DNA from: Bacilli bacterium
GTDB lineage: Bacteria > Bacillota_I > Bacilli_A > RF39 > UBA660
NCBI GenBank assembly: GCA_045545595.1
Contig: JAZQBG010000019.1
Location: 1-22,136 of the forward strand
Length of the DNA stretch: 22,136 nt
Direction of reading: 5' to 3'
This document shows, one piece after another, positions 1-21,960 of this stretch. The position numbers and the translations under genes are program-made. Position 1 is the first letter of the stretch. Each line of letters opens with the position of its first letter. The notes beneath the pieces were generated by a model. It was not told the DNA's origin, searched no databases, and saw only the letters and a program-made list of their open reading frames with translations.

Positions 1-1341
1 TACTCTTGCATTTTCTGGTAGTTTCCATTTACCATTTACTTCTCTATCTAGTACTAGATTAAATGCCATGTTTTGTATTGCTGGTAATGCATTTGTTATT
101 TCATCTAAAAATACTATGTGTATCTTATCTTTTTCTTTTTCACATCTTTCTTCTAGCTTAACTAACCATGTTGGTTTTATATCTATTATCTTTTTACTAC
201 TTTCTATTAATTTATCAAAACTGATTTCACCTTTATCATACATTGGCTTTAACATTTCAAATGTTGCTTGATCTGTCATAGCTACACTTTTTCCATTTAA
301 GCTTTCTGGAGTTGCATTAGCTAGGTATATTATTTCACAATCTGGATCTAATTGTTTTACCCTGGCGCTTTTACCTTCACTACTTCTACCATGTAATAAT
401 ACTGATATTCCACTTTGTACTGAAGCTTTTATTATATCTTCTTCACTTACTTCTTCAAAATCAAAGTTATATGGATTTTTTCTTCTATTATTTTCTTCAT
501 CTTGTTCACTACTTACTTCTAGATTTACTGCTTTTGTACGAAACATTTCTATTGACAAATATTTATCCATAAACTCTTTCATATCAGTCTTAGAAAAATC
601 ACCTTTGTAATCCCTTGTGTTTTTAAACTGTATACCTGATACTATTATTTCTTCAGTTATCATTAATTTTGACTTTTCATCTACTAACCATTTTACTGGT
701 TCAACTTCAACCCATACATAATCACCACGTGTATAAGTTTCCCCGTTTGATAATGTAAATTCATCATCGAATGTATTAGCTGCAACTCTTACATATTTTT
801 TCCCGTTATATTCATATTCAGCATGAACTTTTGGACAAAATACTTCGTAATAATCATAACACATTATTGAATCAGTTATGTATGCATTGTTATTTTTATT
901 TAATCTTAAAGCAAGAAAGGTATCCTCTAATTTGTCTTGTATATTTTTAGGCGCTGCACTTCTTGGATAATAACCATATTCTACTTCTAGTATTCCATCT
1001 TTTGATCTTCCACTCACTCCGTTCGTGGGGATTGATTGGACGCTAGAGAACGATAAAGCGGGACGGACCCCACCAGTACGCTTATTAACAAGGTTGCTGT
1101 TACTATCACCATCGTAGTGAACGACGCGCGCGTCATTATCCTGATCATCAGTTTTAGTCCAATACCATCCTGTTCTTTTATCTAGTGTACGAGTATAGTC
1201 TACATAAAAAACACTACTTACAAATCCACCTAAAAGAATCGCAAAATCTGTTATTGCAGCTTTTGTTCCTCTTTTCTTTATTACATCTAGTGCCTTATCT
1301 CCAAATATTTGACTTTCTTCTAACAATGTTAGTTCTTGCAT
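1..1341 (-). CDS. DGR target protein, paralog 2 (5' portion only, runs off the left edge): N-terminal variable domain + AAA+ ATPase
   Basis: Not in the ORF track because it is edge-truncated. Hand translation from ATG (1341-1339) gives MQELTLLEESQIFGDKALDVIKKRGTKAAITDF... with no stop in 447 codons. It is highly similar by eye to residues 1-450 of the 665-aa ORF at 3226-5223, apart from the VR and a divergent linker with a 3-codon length difference. Walker A GRSSEGKS and Walker B IVFLDEITN are present. Confidence 0.8.
   Translation of the reverse strand, partial: MQELTLLEESQIFGDKALDVIKKRGTKAAITDFAILLGGFVSSVFYVDYTRTLDKRTGWYWTKTDDQDNDARVVHYDGDSNSNLVNKRTGGVRPALSFSSVQSIPTNGVSGRSKDGILEVEYGYYPRSAAPKNIQDKLEDTFLALRLNKNNNAYITDSIMCYDYYEVFCPKVHAEYEYNGKKYVRVAANTFDDEFTLSNGETYTRGDYVWVEVEPVKWLVDEKSKLMITEEIIVSGIQFKNTRDYKGDFSKTDMKEFMDKYLSIEMFRTKAVNLEVSSEQDEENNRRKNPYNFDFEEVSEEDIIKASVQSGISVLLHGRSSEGKSARVKQLDPDCEIIYLANATPESLNGKSVAMTDQATFEMLKPMYDKGEISFDKLIESSKKIIDIKPTWLVKLEERCEKEKDKIHIVFLDEITNALPAIQNMAFNLVLDREVNGKWKLPENARV
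1059..1132 (-). repeat. DGR variable repeat VR2
   Basis: 74 nt, colinear with TR 6527-6600. There are 9 mismatches: 8 at plus-strand T (coding-strand A of the TR) and 1 in the 3'-terminal hairpin loop. Encodes ARVVHYDGDSNSNLVNKRTGGVRP; the TR in the same frame encodes ARVVNNDGNSNNNNVNKRNGGVRP. Confidence 0.9.
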
Positions 1342-1374
1342 TATCTATCACTTACTTTCTCTTAAGTTTACGCA

Positions 1375-2826
1375 TTACCTTTTTCTACAATTATTTGAAT
1401 TTGAGTTAGATAATTTTTTTAATTGCTCATCCGTAATATATATAACTTTACCACCTGGTGGATTTATTTTGTCACTACCAAATACTACCCATATAGCATT
1501 TACACTTTTTTCAGGCATATCTGCATATCCATCAGTAAATATTATTTTATTTTCTGTCCTTCTAGAAAACGCATTAACTGCTGTATCAAAATTTGTTCCA
1601 CCTCTACCTACAAATTCCATATTATCAATGTCTTTTTCATTTCTAATTTCATGAAAACCATAAAATTTAGTGTCAAAACATCCGACCTTTACTTTAGAAG
1701 TTTTCAAAATATTTTTACATTCTCTAAGAAAATTTCTAAGTAGTGTATTATTAATAGAGCCACTGGTATCTAATAATATTTCAGTTTCTGGTTGAGGCAT
1801 TTTTTCAAGATGAGGAGTTACGATACCATCTTCAACAGTTGCGTTCTTATAAGACCAATCTACATTTAATTTAATAGCTTCCCTTAAATATCTTCTCCAG
1901 TCAATTAAAGGTGAAGCATTTCCTATATCATCAAATTTTATAATATTGGAATCAGTAGTATTACCTGAACTAGTAGATTGTTTCGCTAAAGAATTTTTAA
2001 GTTCTTCCAATAATTTTTCTTTTTCTTTTTTATTTTCGCTAAACGTTTTCTTTTCTCCTTGTTCAGATAGTTTTTTTATGGTTTCCTCTTTTTTACTTTT
2101 AGGTTCTGTATCTCCTTGTTCATTCTGAGGTTCAGTTTTTTCTTCTTTAGTTTCTTCATTTTTATCTCTATTAAATAATTTGTCTAAGAAATTACTTTTC
2201 TTTTTATTTTCCTTTTTCTCTTCTTGTTTTTGTCCGTTACCATTACTATTTTGTTGGTCTTGATTTTTTCTCTTTTCAATGGCATCATCCCACATACTAT
2301 GAGAGTCATGACCTACATTCATATCTTCAAATGTATCATCGCTTGACGAACTTTGACTAGGATTATTCTCTTGTCCATTTCCATCAGAACTAGACTGACT
2401 ATTTTTGTTGTCTTTCTGATTTTGGTTATTATTTTCCTTTTCCTTTAATAGTTTTTCATAATATGATTCAACATCATAATTATATGCTTCTGGTTTGTTA
2501 ACTCCACCTTCAACAAGTGGTAATCCATCATGCACTAAGTTTGCATTAATCACTGCATCTGCAGCTGTATTCCATAATCTTTTATCCTTGCCTTCACTTC
2601 TATAAATATGATTAAGCGCAACATGGGCTATTTCATGTGCAAAAATAAATACTTTTTCATCTTCTGTTAATCCACTTATAAAATCAGGATTATAATAAAT
2701 TGTATCACCATCTGTTTCTGCTATTGGACATTTTATTGTTTCAACATAATTCATATTCGCAAGTACACTTCCAAATGATGGATACTTTATAAGCAGTTTT
2801 CTTTTTATGTTATCTACATTTACCAT
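1375..2826 (-). CDS. VWA-like domain protein with N-terminal HExxH zinc metallopeptidase-like domain (DUF2201-type, as recalled) and a long low-complexity linker
   Basis: 483-aa ORF with AGGAGA RBS 6 nt upstream. N-terminus has FAHEIAHVALNH (HExxH) followed by WNTAADAVINANL. C-terminus has LLDTSGSI ... GGTNF ... IIFTDGY, typical of a VWA/MIDAS-like fold. About 175 aa of N/Q/S/K/E-rich linker lies between. This domain pair is a classical partner of MoxR-type AAA+ ATPases. Confidence 0.85.
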   Translation of the reverse strand: MVNVDNIKRKLLIKYPSFGSVLANMNYVETIKCPIAETDGDTIYYNPDFISGLTEDEKVFIFAHEIAHVALNHIYRSEGKDKRLWNTAADAVINANLVHDGLPLVEGGVNKPEAYNYDVESYYEKLLKEKENNNQNQKDNKNSQSSSDGNGQENNPSQSSSSDDTFEDMNVGHDSHSMWDDAIEKRKNQDQQNSNGNGQKQEEKKENKKKSNFLDKLFNRDKNEETKEEKTEPQNEQGDTEPKSKKEETIKKLSEQGEKKTFSENKKEKEKLLEELKNSLAKQSTSSGNTTDSNIIKFDDIGNASPLIDWRRYLREAIKLNVDWSYKNATVEDGIVTPHLEKMPQPETEILLDTSGSINNTLLRNFLRECKNILKTSKVKVGCFDTKFYGFHEIRNEKDIDNMEFVGRGGTNFDTAVNAFSRRTENKIIFTDGYADMPEKSVNAIWVVFGSDKINPPGGKVIYITDEQLKKLSNSNSNNCRKR

Positions 2827-2836
2827 ATAAATTCTC

Positions 2837-3229
2837 CTAGATTTGCGCTAATAAAGAATATATATTTTCATTTATAGGATTTTCTTTTAAATTAGAACAT
2901 GTAACAATAATGATACAATTCTTAGGTAATTCAAAAGTACTTACTTTTTTATATTTTAATATTTCACCAAACTTTATTTGTTCGTCAGTTGATATTTTAT
3001 TAATTTCATTTATAACTAGTATTTGATTCTTTTTTTCTATCAGTTCATTATACCAATTAGGCGCTACAAAATTTGTTTCTTCATAACTTCCATTTAATAT
3101 TTCTCTATCACAGTTACTTTCAATAATTACAGCATCTTCAAATGCTTTCACAGAAACATCCTCCATTAATATTGGTGAAATCCCCGATTTTATATAACTA
3201 TTTAAAATTTTCATTTTTTCTTCATTCAT
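2837..3229 (-). CDS. Small operon protein of unknown function; possible degenerate AAA+ core fragment
   Basis: 130-aa ORF. Its ATG overlaps the TGA of the upstream gene (ATGA), which suggests translational coupling. The segment LVINEINKISTDEQIKFGEILKYKKV...LPKNCIIIVTCSNL mimics the Walker B to sensor-1 stretch of the neighbouring ATPase (IVFLDEITNALPSIQNMAFNLVLDREV...LPENARVVAAGNEL), but with NE in place of DE and no P-loop. Confidence 0.6.
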   Translation of the reverse strand: MNEEKMKILNSYIKSGISPILMEDVSVKAFEDAVIIESNCDREILNGSYEETNFVAPNWYNELIEKKNQILVINEINKISTDEQIKFGEILKYKKVSTFELPKNCIIIVTCSNLKENPINENIYSLLAQI

Positions 3230-5223
3230 AGTTTTTTTGCTCCTTCATTCAAATTACTAACTCTAAGTTCAGCTATTCTCTCAAGTCTATCATTATCTCC
3301 ATGTATCCATATATTATCAAATGTTGCGGTTACTTCTGGTCCTAACTTTTCTACAAAACTTCTTACTACTTCTACATGTTCATCACTTACACTTGATAAA
3401 CCTAAAGCTGTCGCGTATTTTTCTGACAAGTTCATATTTAAATCACTTTCTGTATAGTTGTTATTTATTACATCTTCTACTGTAATTACTTGTTCTCTAC
3501 AGAAATTTACAAAGTCATATGTTACTTCTTCTCCTACTAATCCTCTTATCATCTCTGGCTTACCTGTTGTATATAATACCTTTGATGCCATCTCCCATTT
3601 TCTTGGGTCTGCATTAGGTTTTTCTCCTGTATATTCTGTTCTTAATGCTTCTATTCCTTTGTATGCTATAAAGGCATATACTGCTGGATGTATCTTTGTT
3701 TTTACTTCTTCTTTCTTATAATCTAATCTTTGATATTTTTCTTCTGGTGTCGATGCCCACTTTAACCAACTCTCTACTGTTGTCTCTATATATACATGAC
3801 AAAATCTATTATACAGTGGTTCTGTTAATTCGTTTGCTGACAATGAATCAGAAAGCTCATTTCCTGCCGCTACTACTCTTGCATTCTCTGGTAATTTCCA
3901 TTTACCATTTACTTCTCTATCTAATACTAGATTAAATGCCATGTTTTGTATACTTGGTAATGCATTTGTTATTTCATCTAAAAATACTATATGTATCTTA
4001 TCTTTTTCTTTTTCGCATCTCTCTTCTAGATTAACTAACCATGTTGGTTTTATATCTATTATCTTTTTACTACTTTCTATTAATTTATCAAATGTTATTT
4101 CACCTTTATCATACATTGGTTTTAACATTTCAAATGTTGCCTGGTCAGTCATAGCTACACTTTTACCATTTAAACTTTCTGGTGTGGCATTAGCTAGGTA
4201 TATTATTTCACAATCTGGATCTAATTGTTTTACTCTGGCACTTTTACCCTCACTACTTCTACCATGTAATAGTACTGATATTCCACTTTGTACTGAAGCT
4301 TTTATTATATCTTCTTCACTTACTTTTTCAAAATTAAAGTTATATGGGTTTTTTCTTCTATTATTTTCTTCTTTTTGTTCCTTTATTTCAGTACCTAAAT
4401 CCATATATATTGTTTGGAAATTTAACATTTCTTTTGACAAATATTTATCCATAAACTCTTTCATATCAGTTTTAGAAAAATCACCTTTATAGTCTCTTGT
4501 ATTTTTAAACTGTATACCTGAAACTATTATTTCTTCTGTAATCATTAATTTTGATCTTTCATCTACTAACCACTTTACTGGTTCAACTTCAACCCATACA
4601 TAATCACCACGTGTATAAGTTTCTCCATTTGATAATATAAATATCTCATCTTTAGAATTAGCTCGTACTCTTACATATTTTTTCCCGTTATATTCATATT
4701 CAGCATGAACTTTTGGACAAAAAACTTCGTCATAATCATAACACATTATTGAATCAGTTATGTATGCATTGTTATTTTTATTTAATCTTAAAGCAAGAAA
4801 GGTATCCTCTAATTTGTCTTGTATATTTTTAGGCGCTGCACTTCTTGGATAATAACCATACTCTACTTCAAATATTCCATCTTTTGATCTTCCACTCACT
4901 CCGTTCGTGGGGATTGATTGGACGCTAGAGAACGGTAAAGCGGGGCGTACCCCAACAGTACGTTTATTAACATAGTTGTTGTTACTATCACCACCGATGT
5001 TAACGACGCGCGCGTCATTATCCTGATCATCAGTTTTAGTCCAATACCATCCTGTTCTTTTATCTAGTGTACGAGTATAGTCTACATAATATTTGTTACT
5101 TACATATCCACCTAAAAGAATCGCAAAATCTGTTATCGCCGCTTTTGTTCCTCTTTTCTTTATTACATCTAGTGCCTTATCTCCAAATATTTGACTTTCT
5201 TCTAATAATGTTAGTTCATTCAT
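3226..5223 (-). CDS. DGR target protein, paralog 1: N-terminal variable (C-type-lectin/FGE-like, GVRPAL-type) domain fused to an AAA+ ATPase (MoxR/AAA_5-like)
   Basis: 665-aa ORF with AGGTGA RBS 7 nt before the ATG at 5223. No signal peptide or TM segment. Residues ~55-97 read GWYWTKT...ARVV...GVRPALPF, the pattern seen in small DGR-type variable ligand-binding domains. The VR covers residues 71-94. The central part has Walker A GRSSEGKS, Walker B IVFLDEITN, VVAAGN and YNRF motifs. Confidence 0.9.
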   Translation of the reverse strand: MNELTLLEESQIFGDKALDVIKKRGTKAAITDFAILLGGYVSNKYYVDYTRTLDKRTGWYWTKTDDQDNDARVVNIGGDSNNNYVNKRTVGVRPALPFSSVQSIPTNGVSGRSKDGIFEVEYGYYPRSAAPKNIQDKLEDTFLALRLNKNNNAYITDSIMCYDYDEVFCPKVHAEYEYNGKKYVRVRANSKDEIFILSNGETYTRGDYVWVEVEPVKWLVDERSKLMITEEIIVSGIQFKNTRDYKGDFSKTDMKEFMDKYLSKEMLNFQTIYMDLGTEIKEQKEENNRRKNPYNFNFEKVSEEDIIKASVQSGISVLLHGRSSEGKSARVKQLDPDCEIIYLANATPESLNGKSVAMTDQATFEMLKPMYDKGEITFDKLIESSKKIIDIKPTWLVNLEERCEKEKDKIHIVFLDEITNALPSIQNMAFNLVLDREVNGKWKLPENARVVAAGNELSDSLSANELTEPLYNRFCHVYIETTVESWLKWASTPEEKYQRLDYKKEEVKTKIHPAVYAFIAYKGIEALRTEYTGEKPNADPRKWEMASKVLYTTGKPEMIRGLVGEEVTYDFVNFCREQVITVEDVINNNYTESDLNMNLSEKYATALGLSSVSDEHVEVVRSFVEKLGPEVTATFDNIWIHGDNDRLERIAELRVSNLNEGAKKL
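3874..5223 (-). repeat. ~1.35-kb direct repeat with 1-1341 (paralogous 5' parts of the two target genes)
   Basis: Offset is 3882 at the gene starts and VRs and 3873 at the window's left edge, so copy 1 is 9 nt (3 codons) longer inside a divergent linker (about 4370-4440 versus 495-560). The remainder is near-identical by eye. Confidence 0.85.
4941..5014 (-). repeat. DGR variable repeat VR1
   Basis: 74 nt, colinear with the TR. There are 8 mismatches: 5 at coding-strand A positions of the TR (AAC>ATC, GAT>GGT, AAT>GAT, AAT>TAT, AAT>ACT) and 3 non-A changes, all within the last 15 nt. Encodes ARVVNIGGDSNNNYVNKRTVGVRP. Confidence 0.9.
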
Positions 5224-5275
5224 TTGTAAATCACCTACTACTATAATTCTACCATATTTTCACTATTTTTTAAAA

Positions 5276-6307
5276 TTATTCTCCATATTTATGAGGAAAA
5301 GTATCATTTTTAAGTTTTAAACTTTCATCTGTATTTTTAATATGATTATAAAAAGCATTTTTTCTAATATAGACATATTCATCATCCACTATATTTTTAT
5401 TCCTTAATTTGTTTAGCGTTTTTAAATGTCTTTTTAATCTAATCTTTGATGATGAACGTAATTTTCTTAATATCCGTCCATTACTATTTAAAATGTGTCT
5501 ATATCCAAGGAAATCTATTCCATTTTTAACCATACCTATTTGTGTTTTAAAATTCAATTCTAAATTAAGTTCATTGTTACATAACTCATCTATTTTATTT
5601 AAACAATAATTTAAATAATTTTTATCTCGGTGAATTAGTATCATATCATCCATGTATCGGATATAACCTTTAATTCTTAGTTTTTCTTTTATTAATCTAT
5701 CTACTTTATTTAAATAGAAAAGCGCAAACAATTGACTGGATTGATTGCCAAGTGGTAATCCTGCACTAGCATTATCTGGTTGTTCTTTTACTAGTTTTTT
5801 AATTAACCACATTTCATCAAGTGAAAATTCTACATTTTTAAGTAAATTTAATAATACTTGGTGGTCAATACTAGGAAAGTATTTTTTTATATCACATTTT
5901 AAATAGTAGATTTTATTATTACGTTCTTTTAAGTATTCATGTCGTAAAAATTTTTCTAATCTATTTATTGCAAAGCTACTACCCTTACCTTTTCTACAAG
6001 CAGCGTTGTCATATATTAATTTTTTCTCTATTTTAGGTTTAAGAACATTATCACAAAAACATCTTATAACTATTCTATCCTTAAATGGCGGTGCCTCAAT
6101 TAATCTTTTCTTTGGTTCATAAATTAAAAATGTTTTATATTTTCTTAATTTATATTTTTTTGTAGTTAGTTCTTTTTTTAAATTATTTAAATTAACTGCA
6201 AGATTAATTTCAAACCTAATAACTTCACCCTTATGTTGTTTAGATTTTCTACACTCTAAATAGGCATTGTATAAATTTTCAAAAGTAAATATTTCTTCTA
6301 ACTCCAT
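5276..6307 (-). CDS. DGR-type reverse transcriptase
   Basis: The ORF track starts at 6331 (GTG). I prefer ATG 6307 (MELEEIF...), which follows an AGGGGG RBS 6 nt upstream. Motifs: KCDIKKYFPSIDH, GLPLGNQSSQLFALFYLN (the [I/L]GxxxSQ signature that separates DGR RTs from retron and group II RTs), and YIRYMDDMILI (YxDD). It sits next to the TR. Confidence 0.92.
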   Translation of the reverse strand: MELEEIFTFENLYNAYLECRKSKQHKGEVIRFEINLAVNLNNLKKELTTKKYKLRKYKTFLIYEPKKRLIEAPPFKDRIVIRCFCDNVLKPKIEKKLIYDNAACRKGKGSSFAINRLEKFLRHEYLKERNNKIYYLKCDIKKYFPSIDHQVLLNLLKNVEFSLDEMWLIKKLVKEQPDNASAGLPLGNQSSQLFALFYLNKVDRLIKEKLRIKGYIRYMDDMILIHRDKNYLNYCLNKIDELCNNELNLELNFKTQIGMVKNGIDFLGYRHILNSNGRILRKLRSSSKIRLKRHLKTLNKLRNKNIVDDEYVYIRKNAFYNHIKNTDESLKLKNDTFPHKYGE

Positions 6308-6526
6308 AAATTTCCCCCTAAAAAAGAACACTCCGTGTAACTTGTAAAAAACAGATTATCTATTCGTTACTTGTGTAAGTGTTCATGTTTTTCCATCGCA
6401 CTTATTTCTTTTAGCGGTTAGAAAAGAGAAAAATTCCTTCACTTTAAATGCTGATATATTTTACTTAAAATATATTTATCTGATTTGTTTTATAGATTCA
6501 CATTGTAAATCTTTTCAAAAGTGAAT
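6308..6526 (-). ncRNA. DGR RNA spacer region between TR and RT (expected to be co-transcribed with the TR)
   Basis: Non-coding, with no credible ORF. Two inverted repeats: GATTCAC 6495-6501 / GTGAATC 6521-6527, abutting the TR 3' end, and GAACACT 6326-6332 / AGTGTTC 6378-6384, just upstream of the RT RBS. In characterised DGRs the TR-adjacent spacer is part of the functional RNA. Confidence 0.55.
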
Positions 6527-6600
6527 CGGGACGAACCCCACCATTACGTTTATTAACATTGTTGTTGTTACTATTACCATCGTTGTTAACGACGCGCGCG
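6527..6600 (-). repeat. DGR template repeat (TR)
   Basis: An intergenic 74-nt copy of the VRs. The coding-strand sequence is rich in AAC/AAT codons (9 AAY codons) and contains 23 adenines. It begins with CGCGCGCG and ends in a GGGG-UUCG-UCCC hairpin, a strikingly GC-rich patch in an AT-rich genome. Confidence 0.9.
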
Positions 6601-6672
6601 AAAAATACTCTACAAACAAGTACGCACACATAAAAATTTTTCCCTTAATCAAAAGTCTTTCGACTTAAAATC

Positions 6673-7257
6673 CTAATGTTTTGTATTCCATCTTTTATCA
6701 TCACTTTTCTTCCAAGCAATAGTTAAATTGATTGCTTCAGCAACTTGCATAGAAATTTGTTTATATTGTTTTTTTAATATACAAGAAGAATTAAAGGCAA
6801 GTAATGAAATATACCCTAATAGTTTTAGTTTTACTATAGCCTGTTTTTGTAATTCTTCTCTTCTTAATTTGTTATCTGTTGAGTCTATCCTTATATAATT
6901 AGCTTGCAATAAATATTCTAATGTATCTATACAATAGTTTTGCATACGATTAACAAATACTCCTCTAAATTTTTTAGGTGACTTTTCTGTAACTGTAATA
7001 ACGTATGCGGCTAATTTCTTTACAACAGTTATTACAACCAATTCATTAGCGTTATATGGTATTTTAGATATTGTTTCTAAATCTTTGTCCTCTTGCATTA
7101 TCACTTCTTTAGTTAATTTTTCATCAAATTTTATGTTATTTGCTGTAGCGATACCTTTTTTAATCTGTACTATATCTTCTACACTATTTGGATTTCTATC
7201 ATGTACATCTATTTGTTTTGGTATTTTCAAATTATTATCTCTACTTACTTGAAACAT
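6673..7257 (-). CDS. avd: Avd-like accessory variability determinant (four-helix-bundle type) with an N-terminal extension
   Basis: 194-aa ORF with AGAGGAG RBS 7 nt upstream. It lies directly upstream of the TR on the same strand. The C-terminal ~125 aa is helical and basic, with the general look of Avd/'23S rRNA-intervening-sequence' family proteins (KKFRGVFVNRMQNYCIDTLEYLLQAN ... AEAINLTIAWKKSDDKR). Assignment rests on position and pattern only. Confidence 0.6.
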   Translation of the reverse strand: MFQVSRDNNLKIPKQIDVHDRNPNSVEDIVQIKKGIATANNIKFDEKLTKEVIMQEDKDLETISKIPYNANELVVITVVKKLAAYVITVTEKSPKKFRGVFVNRMQNYCIDTLEYLLQANYIRIDSTDNKLRREELQKQAIVKLKLLGYISLLAFNSSCILKKQYKQISMQVAEAINLTIAWKKSDDKRWNTKH

Positions 7258-7347
7258 ATATTAACTCCTCTAAATTGTTTGTTTATATAAAACTAATTAA
7301 CAATGTAGTCTATTTTATCATAAAATATTTTGAAAGGAGTAATAAAA

Positions 7348-7608
7348 ATGTATACTGAATATTATGAAACATATCCAACATACACTTATACCAGTTCAGA
7401 AAACCCATCTAACATGACTACATATAGTTATAATCAAAATGATGGTGATAGATTAATTGGTGGATTTGGGGTTCCATTTGTATTAGGCGGGATAACAGGT
7501 GGACTACTTGCACCTGCATTTTATCGTCCATACTATAGACCACCATTCTATGGATCGTATAGACCATATAGACCATATTATAGGCCTCCATTTTATGGAA
7601 GATGGTAA
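7348..7608 (+). CDS. Small Tyr/Pro-rich protein with a central Gly-rich hydrophobic segment and tandem YRPYYRPPFYG repeats
   Basis: The ORF track starts at TTG 7330. ATG 7348 is preferred because AAAGGAG lies 8 nt upstream. The two repeat units differ only by synonymous changes, and a rho-independent terminator follows. Confidence 0.65.
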   Translation: MYTEYYETYPTYTYTSSENPSNMTTYSYNQNDGDRLIGGFGVPFVLGGITGGLLAPAFYRPYYRPPFYGSYRPYRPYYRPPFYGRW

Positions 7609-7697: not shown

Positions 7698-8438
7698 ATG
7701 AAAAGATTATATGAACAAGTACCTATAGATACTTGGAAGAGGATTGCAGACAGAGTTAAAAGATTAAATATAAATGGTTATACAAGCGATGAATTTAATT
7801 CAAATTTGAAGATATTACAAAATTTATTGTCGGATTTAGATTTATCATTAGAAGAAGGAAAGAAAGAACCAAAAATTGACGATCAAATTGGATTATCATC
7901 ATTACTATCTTCTATTTATTGTACAAGTATTATTCCAGAAAGTTCTATACAAGACTTTTGCGAATATATTTATGCATTAGATGATTTAGGTGTAGAAAAC
8001 ATAACATATAGACCAGTTAATTTTCCTAATAAAATTAATACAAAATTAGAGTATAGCGATGATTATGTACATATGCAAAAACTTATAAGTAAATGTTATA
8101 CAGATGGAAAGTTTAAATTATCAAGACCAGATATAATTAGTTATTGTGATTATAATCGATATTTAATTACAAATATAAAAGATGCTTCATATATATTAAT
8201 CACTAAAATTTCTCATCAAAGACCATATGCATTAAAAGAACCACAAGTATTAGAATCTGAAATTGTAATTAAAAACTTTAAAGGTAATTTACCAGATAAA
8301 AAAGAATTAATAAATATAGAATTCCCAAAATTAAAAATTCATTCTAGAAAAATTAGTTGGGGCGAAAGTCCAGAATATAGTCAAATATTTAATGAATATA
8401 TTAATGAAGATATAATTGTTAAAAAACTAAAAAAATAG
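7698..8438 (+). CDS. Hypothetical protein
   Basis: 246-aa ORF with GAAGGT RBS and a terminator downstream. I recognise no motifs. Confidence 0.6.
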   Translation: MKRLYEQVPIDTWKRIADRVKRLNINGYTSDEFNSNLKILQNLLSDLDLSLEEGKKEPKIDDQIGLSSLLSSIYCTSIIPESSIQDFCEYIYALDDLGVENITYRPVNFPNKINTKLEYSDDYVHMQKLISKCYTDGKFKLSRPDIISYCDYNRYLITNIKDASYILITKISHQRPYALKEPQVLESEIVIKNFKGNLPDKKELINIEFPKLKIHSRKISWGESPEYSQIFNEYINEDIIVKKLKK

Positions 8439-8714: not shown

Positions 8715-8717
8715 AAA

Positions 8718-8815
8718 CATTTTCGTTCGGGATAATTTATTACTCGCACCACCCGAGAGCGAGAAACATTGTCGACCGGAATAACTTATTACTCGCACCA
8801 TCCGGGAGCGAGAAA
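8718..8815 (-). repeat. Two tandem 49-nt repeats, each predicted to form an H-type pseudoknot (structured RNA; type III antitoxin-like or tandem aptamer)
   Basis: Period is exactly 49 nt (the AAACATT motif recurs with its C at 8718, 8767 and 8816). 42 of 49 positions are identical. Stem 1 is CUCGC/GCGAG in both copies. Stem 2 is UCGGG/CCCGA in one copy and CCGGA/UCCGG in the other, i.e. two compensatory base-pair changes. The stems are interleaved in the order S1-5', S2-5', S1-3', S2-3'. Confidence 0.7.
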
Positions 8816-21535: not shown

Positions 21536-21611
21536 TGGTGTCCCGCCCGAGGCTCGAACTCGGGACCCTTTGATTAAAAGTCAAATGCTCTACCAACTGA
21601 GCTAACGGGAC
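21536..21611 (-). tRNA. tRNA-Lys (anticodon UUU)
   Basis: The reverse complement GUCCCGUUAGCUCAGUUGGUAGAGCAUUUGACUUUUAAUCAAAGGGUCCCGAGUUCGAGCCUCGGGCGGGACACCA folds as a cloverleaf. Anticodon loop CUUUUAA; encoded CCA. Confidence 0.93.
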
Positions 21612-21619
21612 AAATAATT

Positions 21620-21694
21620 TGGCTGCCTCGGCTAGATTCGAACTAGCGCATGTCAGAGTCAAAGTCTGATGCCTTACCGCTTGGCTACGAGGCA
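21620..21694 (-). tRNA. tRNA-Gln (anticodon UUG)
   Basis: Reverse complement UGCCUCGUAGCCAAGCGGUAAGGCAUCAGACUUUGACUCUGA...GCAGCCA. Anticodon loop CUUUGAC. Resembles Firmicutes tRNA-Gln. Confidence 0.9.
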
Positions 21695-21709
21695 ATCATT
21701 CAAAAAGAC

Positions 21710-21793
21710 TGGTGGAGGGAGATGGATTTGAACCATCGAACCCGAAGGAACAGATTTACAGACTGCCGCGTTTGACCACTTCGCTACCCTTCC
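21710..21793 (-). tRNA. tRNA-Tyr (anticodon GUA, long variable arm)
   Basis: Reverse complement GGAAGGGUAGCGAAGUGGUCAAACGCGGCAGUCUGUAAAUCUGUUCCUUCGGGUUCGAUGGUUCAAAUCCAUCUCCCUCCACCA. Close to B. subtilis tRNA-Tyr as I recall it. Confidence 0.88.
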
Positions 21794-21800
21794 AAAAAAA

Positions 21801-21876
<76 letters not shown>

Positions 21877-21883
21877 AAAAAAA

Positions 21884-21960
21884 TGGTGGGCGATATAGGA
21901 CTCGAACCTATGACCCCTTGCTTGTAAGGCAAGTGCTCTAACCAACTGAGCTAATCGCCC
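21884..21960 (-). tRNA. tRNA-Val (anticodon UAC)
   Basis: Reverse complement GGGCGAUUAGCUCAGUUGGUUAGAGCACUUGCCUUACAAGCAAGGGGUCAUAGGUUCGAGUCCUAUAUCGCCCACCA. Confidence 0.92.

Follow-up and report, generated by a model that had tools for sequence, protein, structure and literature searches.

An AAA+ ATPase with an N-terminal variable module as the predicted target of a diversity-generating retroelement in gut Bacilli

We analysed a 22,136 nt stretch of DNA, hereafter the window, comprising positions 1 to 22,136 of contig JAZQBG010000019.1 (assembly GCA_045545595.1) from a Bacilli bacterium classified by GTDB as Bacillota_I; Bacilli_A; RF39; UBA660. The window carries a confirmed diversity-generating retroelement (DGR) consisting of an Avd-like accessory gene, a template repeat (TR) and a reverse transcriptase (RT). 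Comparison of its repeats shows that this dedicated element is predicted to rewrite, by adenine mutagenesis, 12 codons in the N-terminal module of an AAA+ ATPase. The ATPase gene (target 1; 5223..3226, minus strand) is a real open reading frame (ORF) of 665 aa, as the preliminary description of this locus had it, and consists of an N-terminal variable module, a linker and the ATPase. It is followed by a small gene for a degenerate AAA+ core and a gene for a DUF2201 protein with VWA-like and zincin-like domains; all three are inherited together and their translation is coupled. The explanation that we favour, with moderate confidence, is that they encode a cytoplasmic three-protein recognition-and-proteolysis machine whose specificity can be redrawn by the DGR.

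A repeat finder recovered exactly three copies of an 80 nt repeat, all on the minus strand. These were the untranslated, AAC/AAT-rich TR (6600..6521), which contains 25 adenines, and two variable repeats, VR1 (4935..5014) in target 1 and VR2 (1053..1132) in a second target gene. Target 2 (1341..<1, minus strand) lies after the DUF2201 gene, encodes at least 447 aa before leaving the window, and is 90 % identical to target 1. Beyond the variable repeat (VR), further patches of difference between the two targets are found at residues 185-196 and in the linker (264-285), and VR2 bears another set of adenine substitutions. TR and VR1 differ at 10 positions, six of them TR adenines, and TR and VR2 differ at 12, nine of them TR adenines. 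All non-adenine differences are confined to the final 21 nt, a GC-rich end resembling an initiation of mutagenic homing (IMH) sequence. A GC-rich hairpin, GGGGTnCGnCCCC, lies within this coding IMH-like 3′ end (TR 6527-6540, VR2 1057-1074 and VR1 near 4941-4954). Read in frame, the TR consists of AAC/AAT codons with adenine-free scaffold codons between them, and the variable codons of VR1 are those for residues 75-77, 79-84, 86, 87 and 89. The VR had been placed at residues 71-94, which is essentially right; homology extends from residue 70/71 to 96 and the variable codons span 75-89.

The same signature was evident across the family. TR/VR mismatches summed over 19 RT-linked loci fell at TR adenines in 256 cases versus 60 at other bases, a tally in which four identical paralogue comparisons from locus L063 are counted separately and one chance match from L065 is included. 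In an alignment of 72 target sequences, nine of the ten most variable columns were VR positions. The codons with a TR adenine at position 1 or 2 were exactly the 12 VR columns of high entropy (H 2.5-3.8 bits), and the adenine-free codons 78, 85, 88, 91, 93 and 94 were near-invariant (H <0.5). An 818-sequence cluster defined at 90 % identity has a representative with Avd and RT genes upstream at its locus, and members 98-99 % identical to this representative differed from it almost only at VR positions. Strain-level variation is therefore read from this homologous DGR-linked cluster, the window locus being a single sequence on record. Together, the adenine-biased mismatches, the variability of templated codons and the strain variants bear out the earlier proposal of a genuine DGR and indicate a family under active diversification. 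At two loci that have target paralogues and no RT (L049 and L031), differences between paralogues were in excess specifically in the VR, a pattern suggestive of a DGR that works in trans or was active formerly.

The remaining DGR components were identified as follows. The Avd-like gene (7257..6673, minus strand) encodes 194 aa, including an N-terminal extension of approximately 70 aa. Among Avd models, its product matched phrog_3206 'Avd protein of DGR' with E 8e-15 and Pfam bAvd with E 0.004; a match to NCBIfam DivGenRetAVD (E 3e-7) fell short of the curated cutoff. Homologues of 59-69 % identity are encoded upstream of the RT in homologous loci. The RT (6331..5276, minus strand; 351 aa) matched RVT_1 (E 1e-18) and a PADLOC RT model (E 2e-38), and carries YMDD together with LGNQSSQ, which fits the DGR motif-4 signature (I/L)GxxxSQ. 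RTs of 56-74 % identity occupy the same position in 27 loci, and TRs homologous to that of the window were found between avd and RT in 19 other loci. The spacer between TR and RT (6332..6520, minus strand) is probably a structured part of the DGR RNA, since RNAalifold over 15 loci predicted 49 base pairs, of which 22 show compensatory changes. The motif GATTCACTTTTGAAGAGATTT immediately 3′ of the TR is largely kept, with variants, across 20 aligned loci. Spacers equivalent to 6332-6520 in 15 loci, designated between L006 and L079, share the covarying fold.

The VR lies within an N-terminal module (residues 1-268; 4420..5223) that comprises a DUF6273-like half-domain (approximately residues 1-100) and a β-rich domain (approximately residues 100-265). 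An AlphaFold2 model of the full target built from 72 homologues had a mean predicted local distance difference test score (pLDDT) of 86.7, and displayed a compact module at residues 1-268, a disordered linker at 270-287 and an α/β-plus-helical C-terminal region. Modelled alone, the N-terminal module reached a pLDDT of 95.7 and a predicted TM-score of 0.93. The VR was modelled as a β-hairpin (strands 71-74 and 80-83), a loop and a strand at 95-97, with pLDDT >90 throughout. These models lend support to a sensor-ATPase reading of the protein.

A C-type-lectin fold had been proposed for this region, and the evidence for it is mixed. The window target itself matched DUF6273 (E 0.024) and Fib_succ_major (E 0.021) weakly and below threshold, and two homologues, P0071 (25.4 bits) and P0004 (27.3 bits), exceeded the DUF6273 gathering threshold (GA) of 23.5, with matches covering profile positions 77/103-169 of 172 and hence the C-terminal half only. 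These matches map to target residues 23-97, which places the VR at the end of the profile. The likeness is thus partial, and Foldseek searches with the module returned no significant match in the PDB (best E 0.15) or in BFVD, where the top-ranking hit, to DUF6273, was marginal (E 0.039, TM 0.26). No three-dimensional likeness to solved lectin-type DGR targets such as Mtd and TvpA was found, and the family profile of the module retrieved nothing relevant among PDB sequences. Residues 100-265 matched no Pfam family. A circularly permuted lectin domain was considered and rejected, as a Pfam scan of residues 98-268 in ten homologues at E≤10 gave no DUF6273 signal and a single weak, sub-threshold DUF3592 match.

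DUF6273-type domains with the VR at their C-terminal end have been described in tentaclins and other DGR targets of gut phages (PMC10743442, PMC11792537), and our model, with its hairpin, loop and strand, is in keeping with what is described for tentaclins. Tentaclins act as receptor-binding proteins of the virion and contain Ig-like domains (PMC10743442, PMC11792537), whereas the window target retains only the C-terminal half of DUF6273, followed by the unmatched β-rich domain and the ATPase. Cellular DGR targets are mostly surface proteins (PMC8144416), and this, along with the occurrence of DUF6273-type domains in phage receptor-binding proteins (PMC10743442), is what could be said for a conventional surface or secreted adhesin exported via an unrecognized route. 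We regard such an adhesin as very improbable. Hydropathy analysis, as opposed to a signal-peptide predictor, revealed no signal-like N-terminus or transmembrane segment in the target (maximum 19-residue Kyte-Doolittle mean 0.83), the small protein or the DUF2201 protein, and the intact Walker motifs of the fused ATPase imply that ATP is supplied from the cytoplasm. The initial view of a VR near the N-terminus of a protein that carries no export signal is upheld to this extent.

A search of residues 1-268 against 1.8 billion cluster representatives yielded 1756 relatives (E≤1e-3). Among the best 150 of these, most were stand-alone proteins of 265-410 aa; in the others the module was N-terminal and followed by AAA_5, ankyrin, AAA_16/ATPase_2, DUF4116, pentapeptide, TelA or LRR_5 domains. 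Some relatives carry the module in tandem. From these domain arrangements the variable head is evidently a portable module. A 311 aa gene that follows the DUF2201 gene in locus L001 was considered as a further instance of the module and rejected.

The rest of the target (residues 300-665; 3229..4326) belongs to the MoxR/MCM (helix-2-insert) type of AAA+ ATPases, in line with the preliminary description. It matched Pfam AAA_5 at 24.0 bits, narrowly above the GA of 22, and phrog_1297 'ATPase' with an E-value of 7e-46; the family sequence profile found no match in the PDB. Foldseek matched this region to NorQ, RavA, CHU_0153 and MCM structures (E ~1e-6 to 1e-7), and because NorQ, RavA and CHU_0153 (E ~1e-6) are equalled or bettered by MCM chains, the similarity points to the helix-2-insert group that contains MoxR and does not single out MoxR. 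Walker A (321-328), Walker B (412-417), sensor 1 (N455) and R473 could all be located. Residues G321, G326, K327 and S328 of Walker A, E417 of Walker B, N455 and R473 were invariant in the 72 homologues, and Walker B D416 was kept in at least 90 % of them. The features expected of the MoxR class were found, namely an AAA_5-type domain with intact Walker A and B motifs, sensor 1 and arginine finger, and an adjacent VWA partner with a metal ion-dependent adhesion site (MIDAS) motif. McrB/McrC of Type IV restriction provides an architectural analogy, with an N-terminal specificity domain that varies between homologues, an AAA_5-type NTPase ring and an effector whose gene comes directly after it. 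The differences are that McrB is a GTPase that recognizes modified DNA and that it works with a nuclease. McrB chains were absent from the 50 Foldseek hits listed for the AAA+ region.

The small gene (3229..2837, minus strand; 130 aa) overlaps the stop codon of target 1 as ATGA, and the DUF2201 gene (2826..1375, minus strand; 483 aa) starts 10 nt past the stop codon of the small gene, which is itself overlapped by an AGGAG sequence. This layout agrees with the translational coupling already noted for the locus. The 130 aa protein, previously and correctly called an AAA-like fragment, is a degenerate, probably non-catalytic AAA+ core. Its relationship to the target was not significant by pairwise BLASTP and was visible by profile-profile comparison only, where hhalign aligned the two families colinearly over target residues 305-477 (probability 92 %, E 6e-7). 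The strand order, a P-x-W motif and the 'LPxNCxIIVT' sensor-1 strand are retained, and the non-catalytic reading follows from loss of the Walker A GK[ST] and replacement of the Walker B DE. The 483 aa protein matched DUF2201_N (E 4e-35) and the VWA-like DUF2201 domain (E 2e-14) in Pfam, as well as phrog_1314 (E 2e-69), with a long low-complexity linker parting the zincin-like and VWA-like domains. Across 22 sequences including a phage homologue, H64, H68, H73, the MIDAS residues D353-x-S355-G356-S357 and T431-D432-G433 were invariant, and E65 was kept in at least 90 %. The partner is accordingly a VWA and HExxH protein, as first described. Alignments of the target and of this partner show the ATPase, zinc-site and MIDAS motifs to be strongly conserved.

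We then examined how widely this arrangement occurs. The full-length target had more than 3000 significant homologues, mostly of 630-690 aa and around 55 % identity, and almost all of these were metagenomic and unannotated. A scan of 185,579 species-representative genomes identified 261 stretches encoding a target relative. The 77 loci kept from these were overwhelmingly gut metagenome-assembled genomes labelled Bacilli, Tenericutes, Mollicutes, 'Coprobacillus sp. CAG:605' or 'Clostridium sp. CAG:417'. Nearly all 77 species loci have the target gene followed by the small gene and then the DUF2201 gene. Avd, TR and RT lay directly upstream, as in the window, in 23 of the 57 loci that could be assessed by virtue of having at least 2.5 kb of upstream sequence. 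Thus the homologues are almost always tied to the VWA partner, and to the retroelement in about 40 % of cases. Tandem target copies were common, up to a maximum of five in L049, where the copies are diverged, two operon sets are present and the nearest 10 kb contain no RT. In L063 (8554-17965) four target copies are identical through the compared regions, VRs included, and stem either from misassembly or from a tandem amplification that is very recent. One target in L005 (5444-8500; P0012, 1018 aa) is extended by a second AAA+ unit; another full-length target precedes it and a DUF2201 gene directly follows.

The ATPase and DUF2201 proteins also have relatives in phages. Altogether 616 phage records, mostly N4-like, matched the ATPase part, with single ones annotated 'N4 gp24-like protein' or 'MoxR-like ATPase'. 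In phage LUZ7 the order is an ATPase (gp037), a small ORF (gp038) and a DUF2201 homologue (gp039), followed by a helicase and a DNA polymerase. Homology to gp039 spans both domains of the DUF2201 protein and the HExxH and DxSGS motifs are conserved; DUF2201 matches in the phage pair comparison had BLASTP E-values of 7e-11 and 9e-10. By these comparisons the ATPase-DUF2201 pair is homologous to the gp24/gp25-type pair of N4-like phages, with LUZ7 gp037-gp039 sharing the three-gene order, although the LUZ7 small ORF had no detectable homology to the 130 aa protein. The phage ATPases differ in being ~350 aa long and in having neither the N-terminal module nor a DGR. Both LUZ7 gp039 (5507-6712 of L083) and phrog_1314 are labelled 'HNH endonuclease', which is likely a propagated misannotation because they are DUF2201 zincin and VWA proteins with conserved HExxH and DxSGS motifs.

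Such matches raise the possibility of a mobile-element-serving or phage-derived module for counter-defence, competitor exclusion or host take-over, in which the DGR tracks variable targets. Aside from the strong phage-family matches and the recurrence of the three-gene order near N4-like replication genes, this would fit the GC content of the DGR cassette (26-32 % compared with 21-26 % elsewhere in the window) and the presence of a Mob_Pre relaxase gene beside one DGR-linked locus. However, among 2.9 million IMG/VR contigs there was a single relative, located in host flank beyond a prophage end, as against the 261 stretches in species-representative genomes. Tblastn of the N-terminal module against 50,697 phage records returned no match, and most flanking genes are housekeeping. 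A viral origin of the cellular family was therefore rejected; the family is not viral, and we consider the mobile-element explanation quite unlikely. The Mob_Pre-linked locus (L084, 281-1564, from the abundant P0024 cluster) has an Avd-RT-target-small-DUF2201 cassette adjoining the relaxase and a helix-turn-helix gene, which hints at mobilizable copies in some strains.

The machine that we favour would consist of the AAA+ ATPase, the degenerate AAA+ subunit and the VWA-zincin peptidase, all cytoplasmic. Its motor pair would share ancestry with the gp24/gp25-type pair of N4-like phages, and the ATPase would have gained its N-terminal ligand-binding module in gut Bacilli. By analogy with the established MoxR-VWA pairs RavA-ViaA and NorQ-NorD, the ATPase is predicted to form a hexameric ring displaying six variable heads, with the degenerate paralogue possibly built into or capping it, and the VWA domain to dock on the ring (PMC9976466, PMC13036017). 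The six heads may bind a fast-changing protein ligand with avidity, most likely a foreign one from a phage or mobile element. ATP hydrolysis could then remodel or unfold the ligand for the zincin domain, or else license that peptidase. The outcome would be a specificity that is redrawn and a motor that is unchanged.

The idea of DGR-diversified sensors encoded beside MoxR and vWA proteins goes back to Kaur et al. 2020 (PMC7159879), and Dore et al. 2024 (PMC10907252) took it further. Those ternary systems resemble the window family in their DGR-diversified ligand-binding domain, predicted cytoplasmic location, MoxR-like AAA+ and vWA proteins, associated peptidase activity and frequent possession of multiple target paralogues. 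They differ in architecture. The lectin-type domain of the Kaur/Dore systems is always C-terminal, on the vWA protein or on a separate target, following a strict syntax in which all other domains are N-terminal to it (PMC7159879), and the third component is VMAP or iSTAND. In the window family, by contrast, the ATPase itself carries the variable module at its N-terminus, the vWA protein bears a DUF2201_N zincin and a degenerate AAA+ core takes the third place. No window protein matched VMAP, iSTAND or bpMoxR in Pfam at E≤0.1. The hosts also differ, being cyanobacteria, gammaproteobacteria and other multicellular bacteria in one case and uncultured gut Bacilli/Tenericutes in the other. The analogy to DGR-NTPase conflict systems that was originally drawn for this locus accordingly holds for the theme but not for the architecture. 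As summarized in PMC10907252, DGR targets reported by Paul et al. 2017 likewise join a variable domain and an AAA ATPase in one polypeptide and come from small-genome uncultured bacteria, but that summary gives the variable domain as C-terminal. Surveys find N-terminal or internal VRs to be rare (PMC5758913). Our literature search found no description of this layout of DGR, N-terminal module, AAA+ and DUF2201, nor any paper joining a DGR with DUF2201, and the papers found to mention DUF6273 concern phage proteins.

The Kaur/Dore proposals also suggest a different use of the same anatomy, namely a trigger-type, abortive-infection-like sensor in which ligand binding switches the ATPase, the zincin cuts a host protein or pro-toxin, and the cell is arrested while the ligand itself is left undegraded. 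MoxR-vWA ternary systems have been proposed to work in this way, with the DGR target as the sensor in the view of Dore et al. (PMC7159879, PMC10907252). For the window family it is the leading alternative, although we judge it unlikely, as neither Pfam nor PADLOC identified a toxin-like effector, VMAP or adaptor domain in the operon, there was no defence-island context among 148 neighbouring ORFs at 15 loci, and the status of the phage homologues as core genes (PMC4193335) speaks against a module that is suicidal by nature.

Several results weigh against the recognition-and-proteolysis machine as well. Each of its steps beyond variation of the head is one that we infer, and structure searching fails to confirm a lectin-type fold for that head. 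Since the function of N4 gp24 and gp25 (vWFA) is unknown (PMC4193335), shared ancestry with the phage pair gives no functional anchor. No RT was found within 10 kb at approximately 60 % of loci, and at three RT-less loci (L068, L076 and L082) the paralogues diverge evenly and not in the VR, so that the machine evidently also exists with a fixed head. PADLOC (PADLOC-DB 2.0) left the target, small protein and DUF2201 protein unmatched, with the RT alone matching generic RT models. A Pfam scan of the 148 neighbouring ORFs found mostly housekeeping genes, including those for DnaB, SRP54, FtsW, RNase J and ribosomal protein L9, and no recurrent defence or mobility genes. An immune role for the operon is therefore without direct support, and the phage or mobile-element sensing put forward in the preliminary description was backed by none of the tests. 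That the operon is a programmable proteolytic immune device, in which a hexameric unfoldase would turn its DGR-redrawn heads, a repertoire of specificities held by the cell, against phage or mobile-element proteins and deliver these proteins to a VWA-tethered zincin, with a motor captured from or shared with N4-like phages, is a possibility that we raise tentatively.

The loci without a nearby RT and the housekeeping chromosomal context would fit a MoxR-type chaperone or maturation system with the N-terminal module as substrate adaptor and its variation incidental or a relic; RavA-ViaA and NorQ-NorD are indeed maturation factors (PMC9976466, PMC13036017). A fixed endogenous substrate would, however, leave unexplained both the targeted, strain-level hypervariation of templated codons and the arrays of up to five target paralogues, and we rate this explanation as distinctly improbable.

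Nearly all DGR targets studied so far belong to the surface or the virion and have their variable patch at the extreme C-terminus, and the syntax of the window target is the inverse. Cytoplasmic DGR-NTPase 'antigen sensor' systems have been proposed but are experimentally untested and tied to multicellular bacteria; the present family extends the theme to Bacilli of the human and animal gut, where it is abundant (more than 3000 protein clusters in addition to the genomic stretches above). For the ATPase/vWFA core genes of N4-like phages, which are conserved but unexplained, the family offers a first point of entry to their function, and it connects this pair with targeted hypermutation. The operon is compact, with three genes and a three-part DGR, and hence provides a tractable test of intracellular recognition by targeted hypermutation. 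The N-terminal module could serve as a scaffold for engineered binder evolution. If true, the immune device would amount functionally to an antibody-guided degradation machine in reduced-genome bacteria.

With regard to the chromosomal setting, positions 1-7257 of the window are occupied by tightly packed minus-strand genes, and the rest contains RnfC/RnfD-like genes, a YqeH-type GTPase, RNase J, a sigma factor and five tRNAs. The tRNA genes (Lys, Gln, Tyr, Thr and Val) are clustered at 21536-21960 beside RNase J, confirming an ordinary chromosomal context. Two divergent plus-strand ORFs upstream of the Avd-like gene had no family match, one encoding a 92 aa Tyr/Pro/Arg-rich product with YRPYYRPPFYG repeats (7330-7608) and the other a product of 246 aa (7698-8438). 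Between the latter and the RnfD-like gene, a 49 nt unit that had no Rfam match is present twice in tandem (8715-8812), the two copies being 86 % identical.

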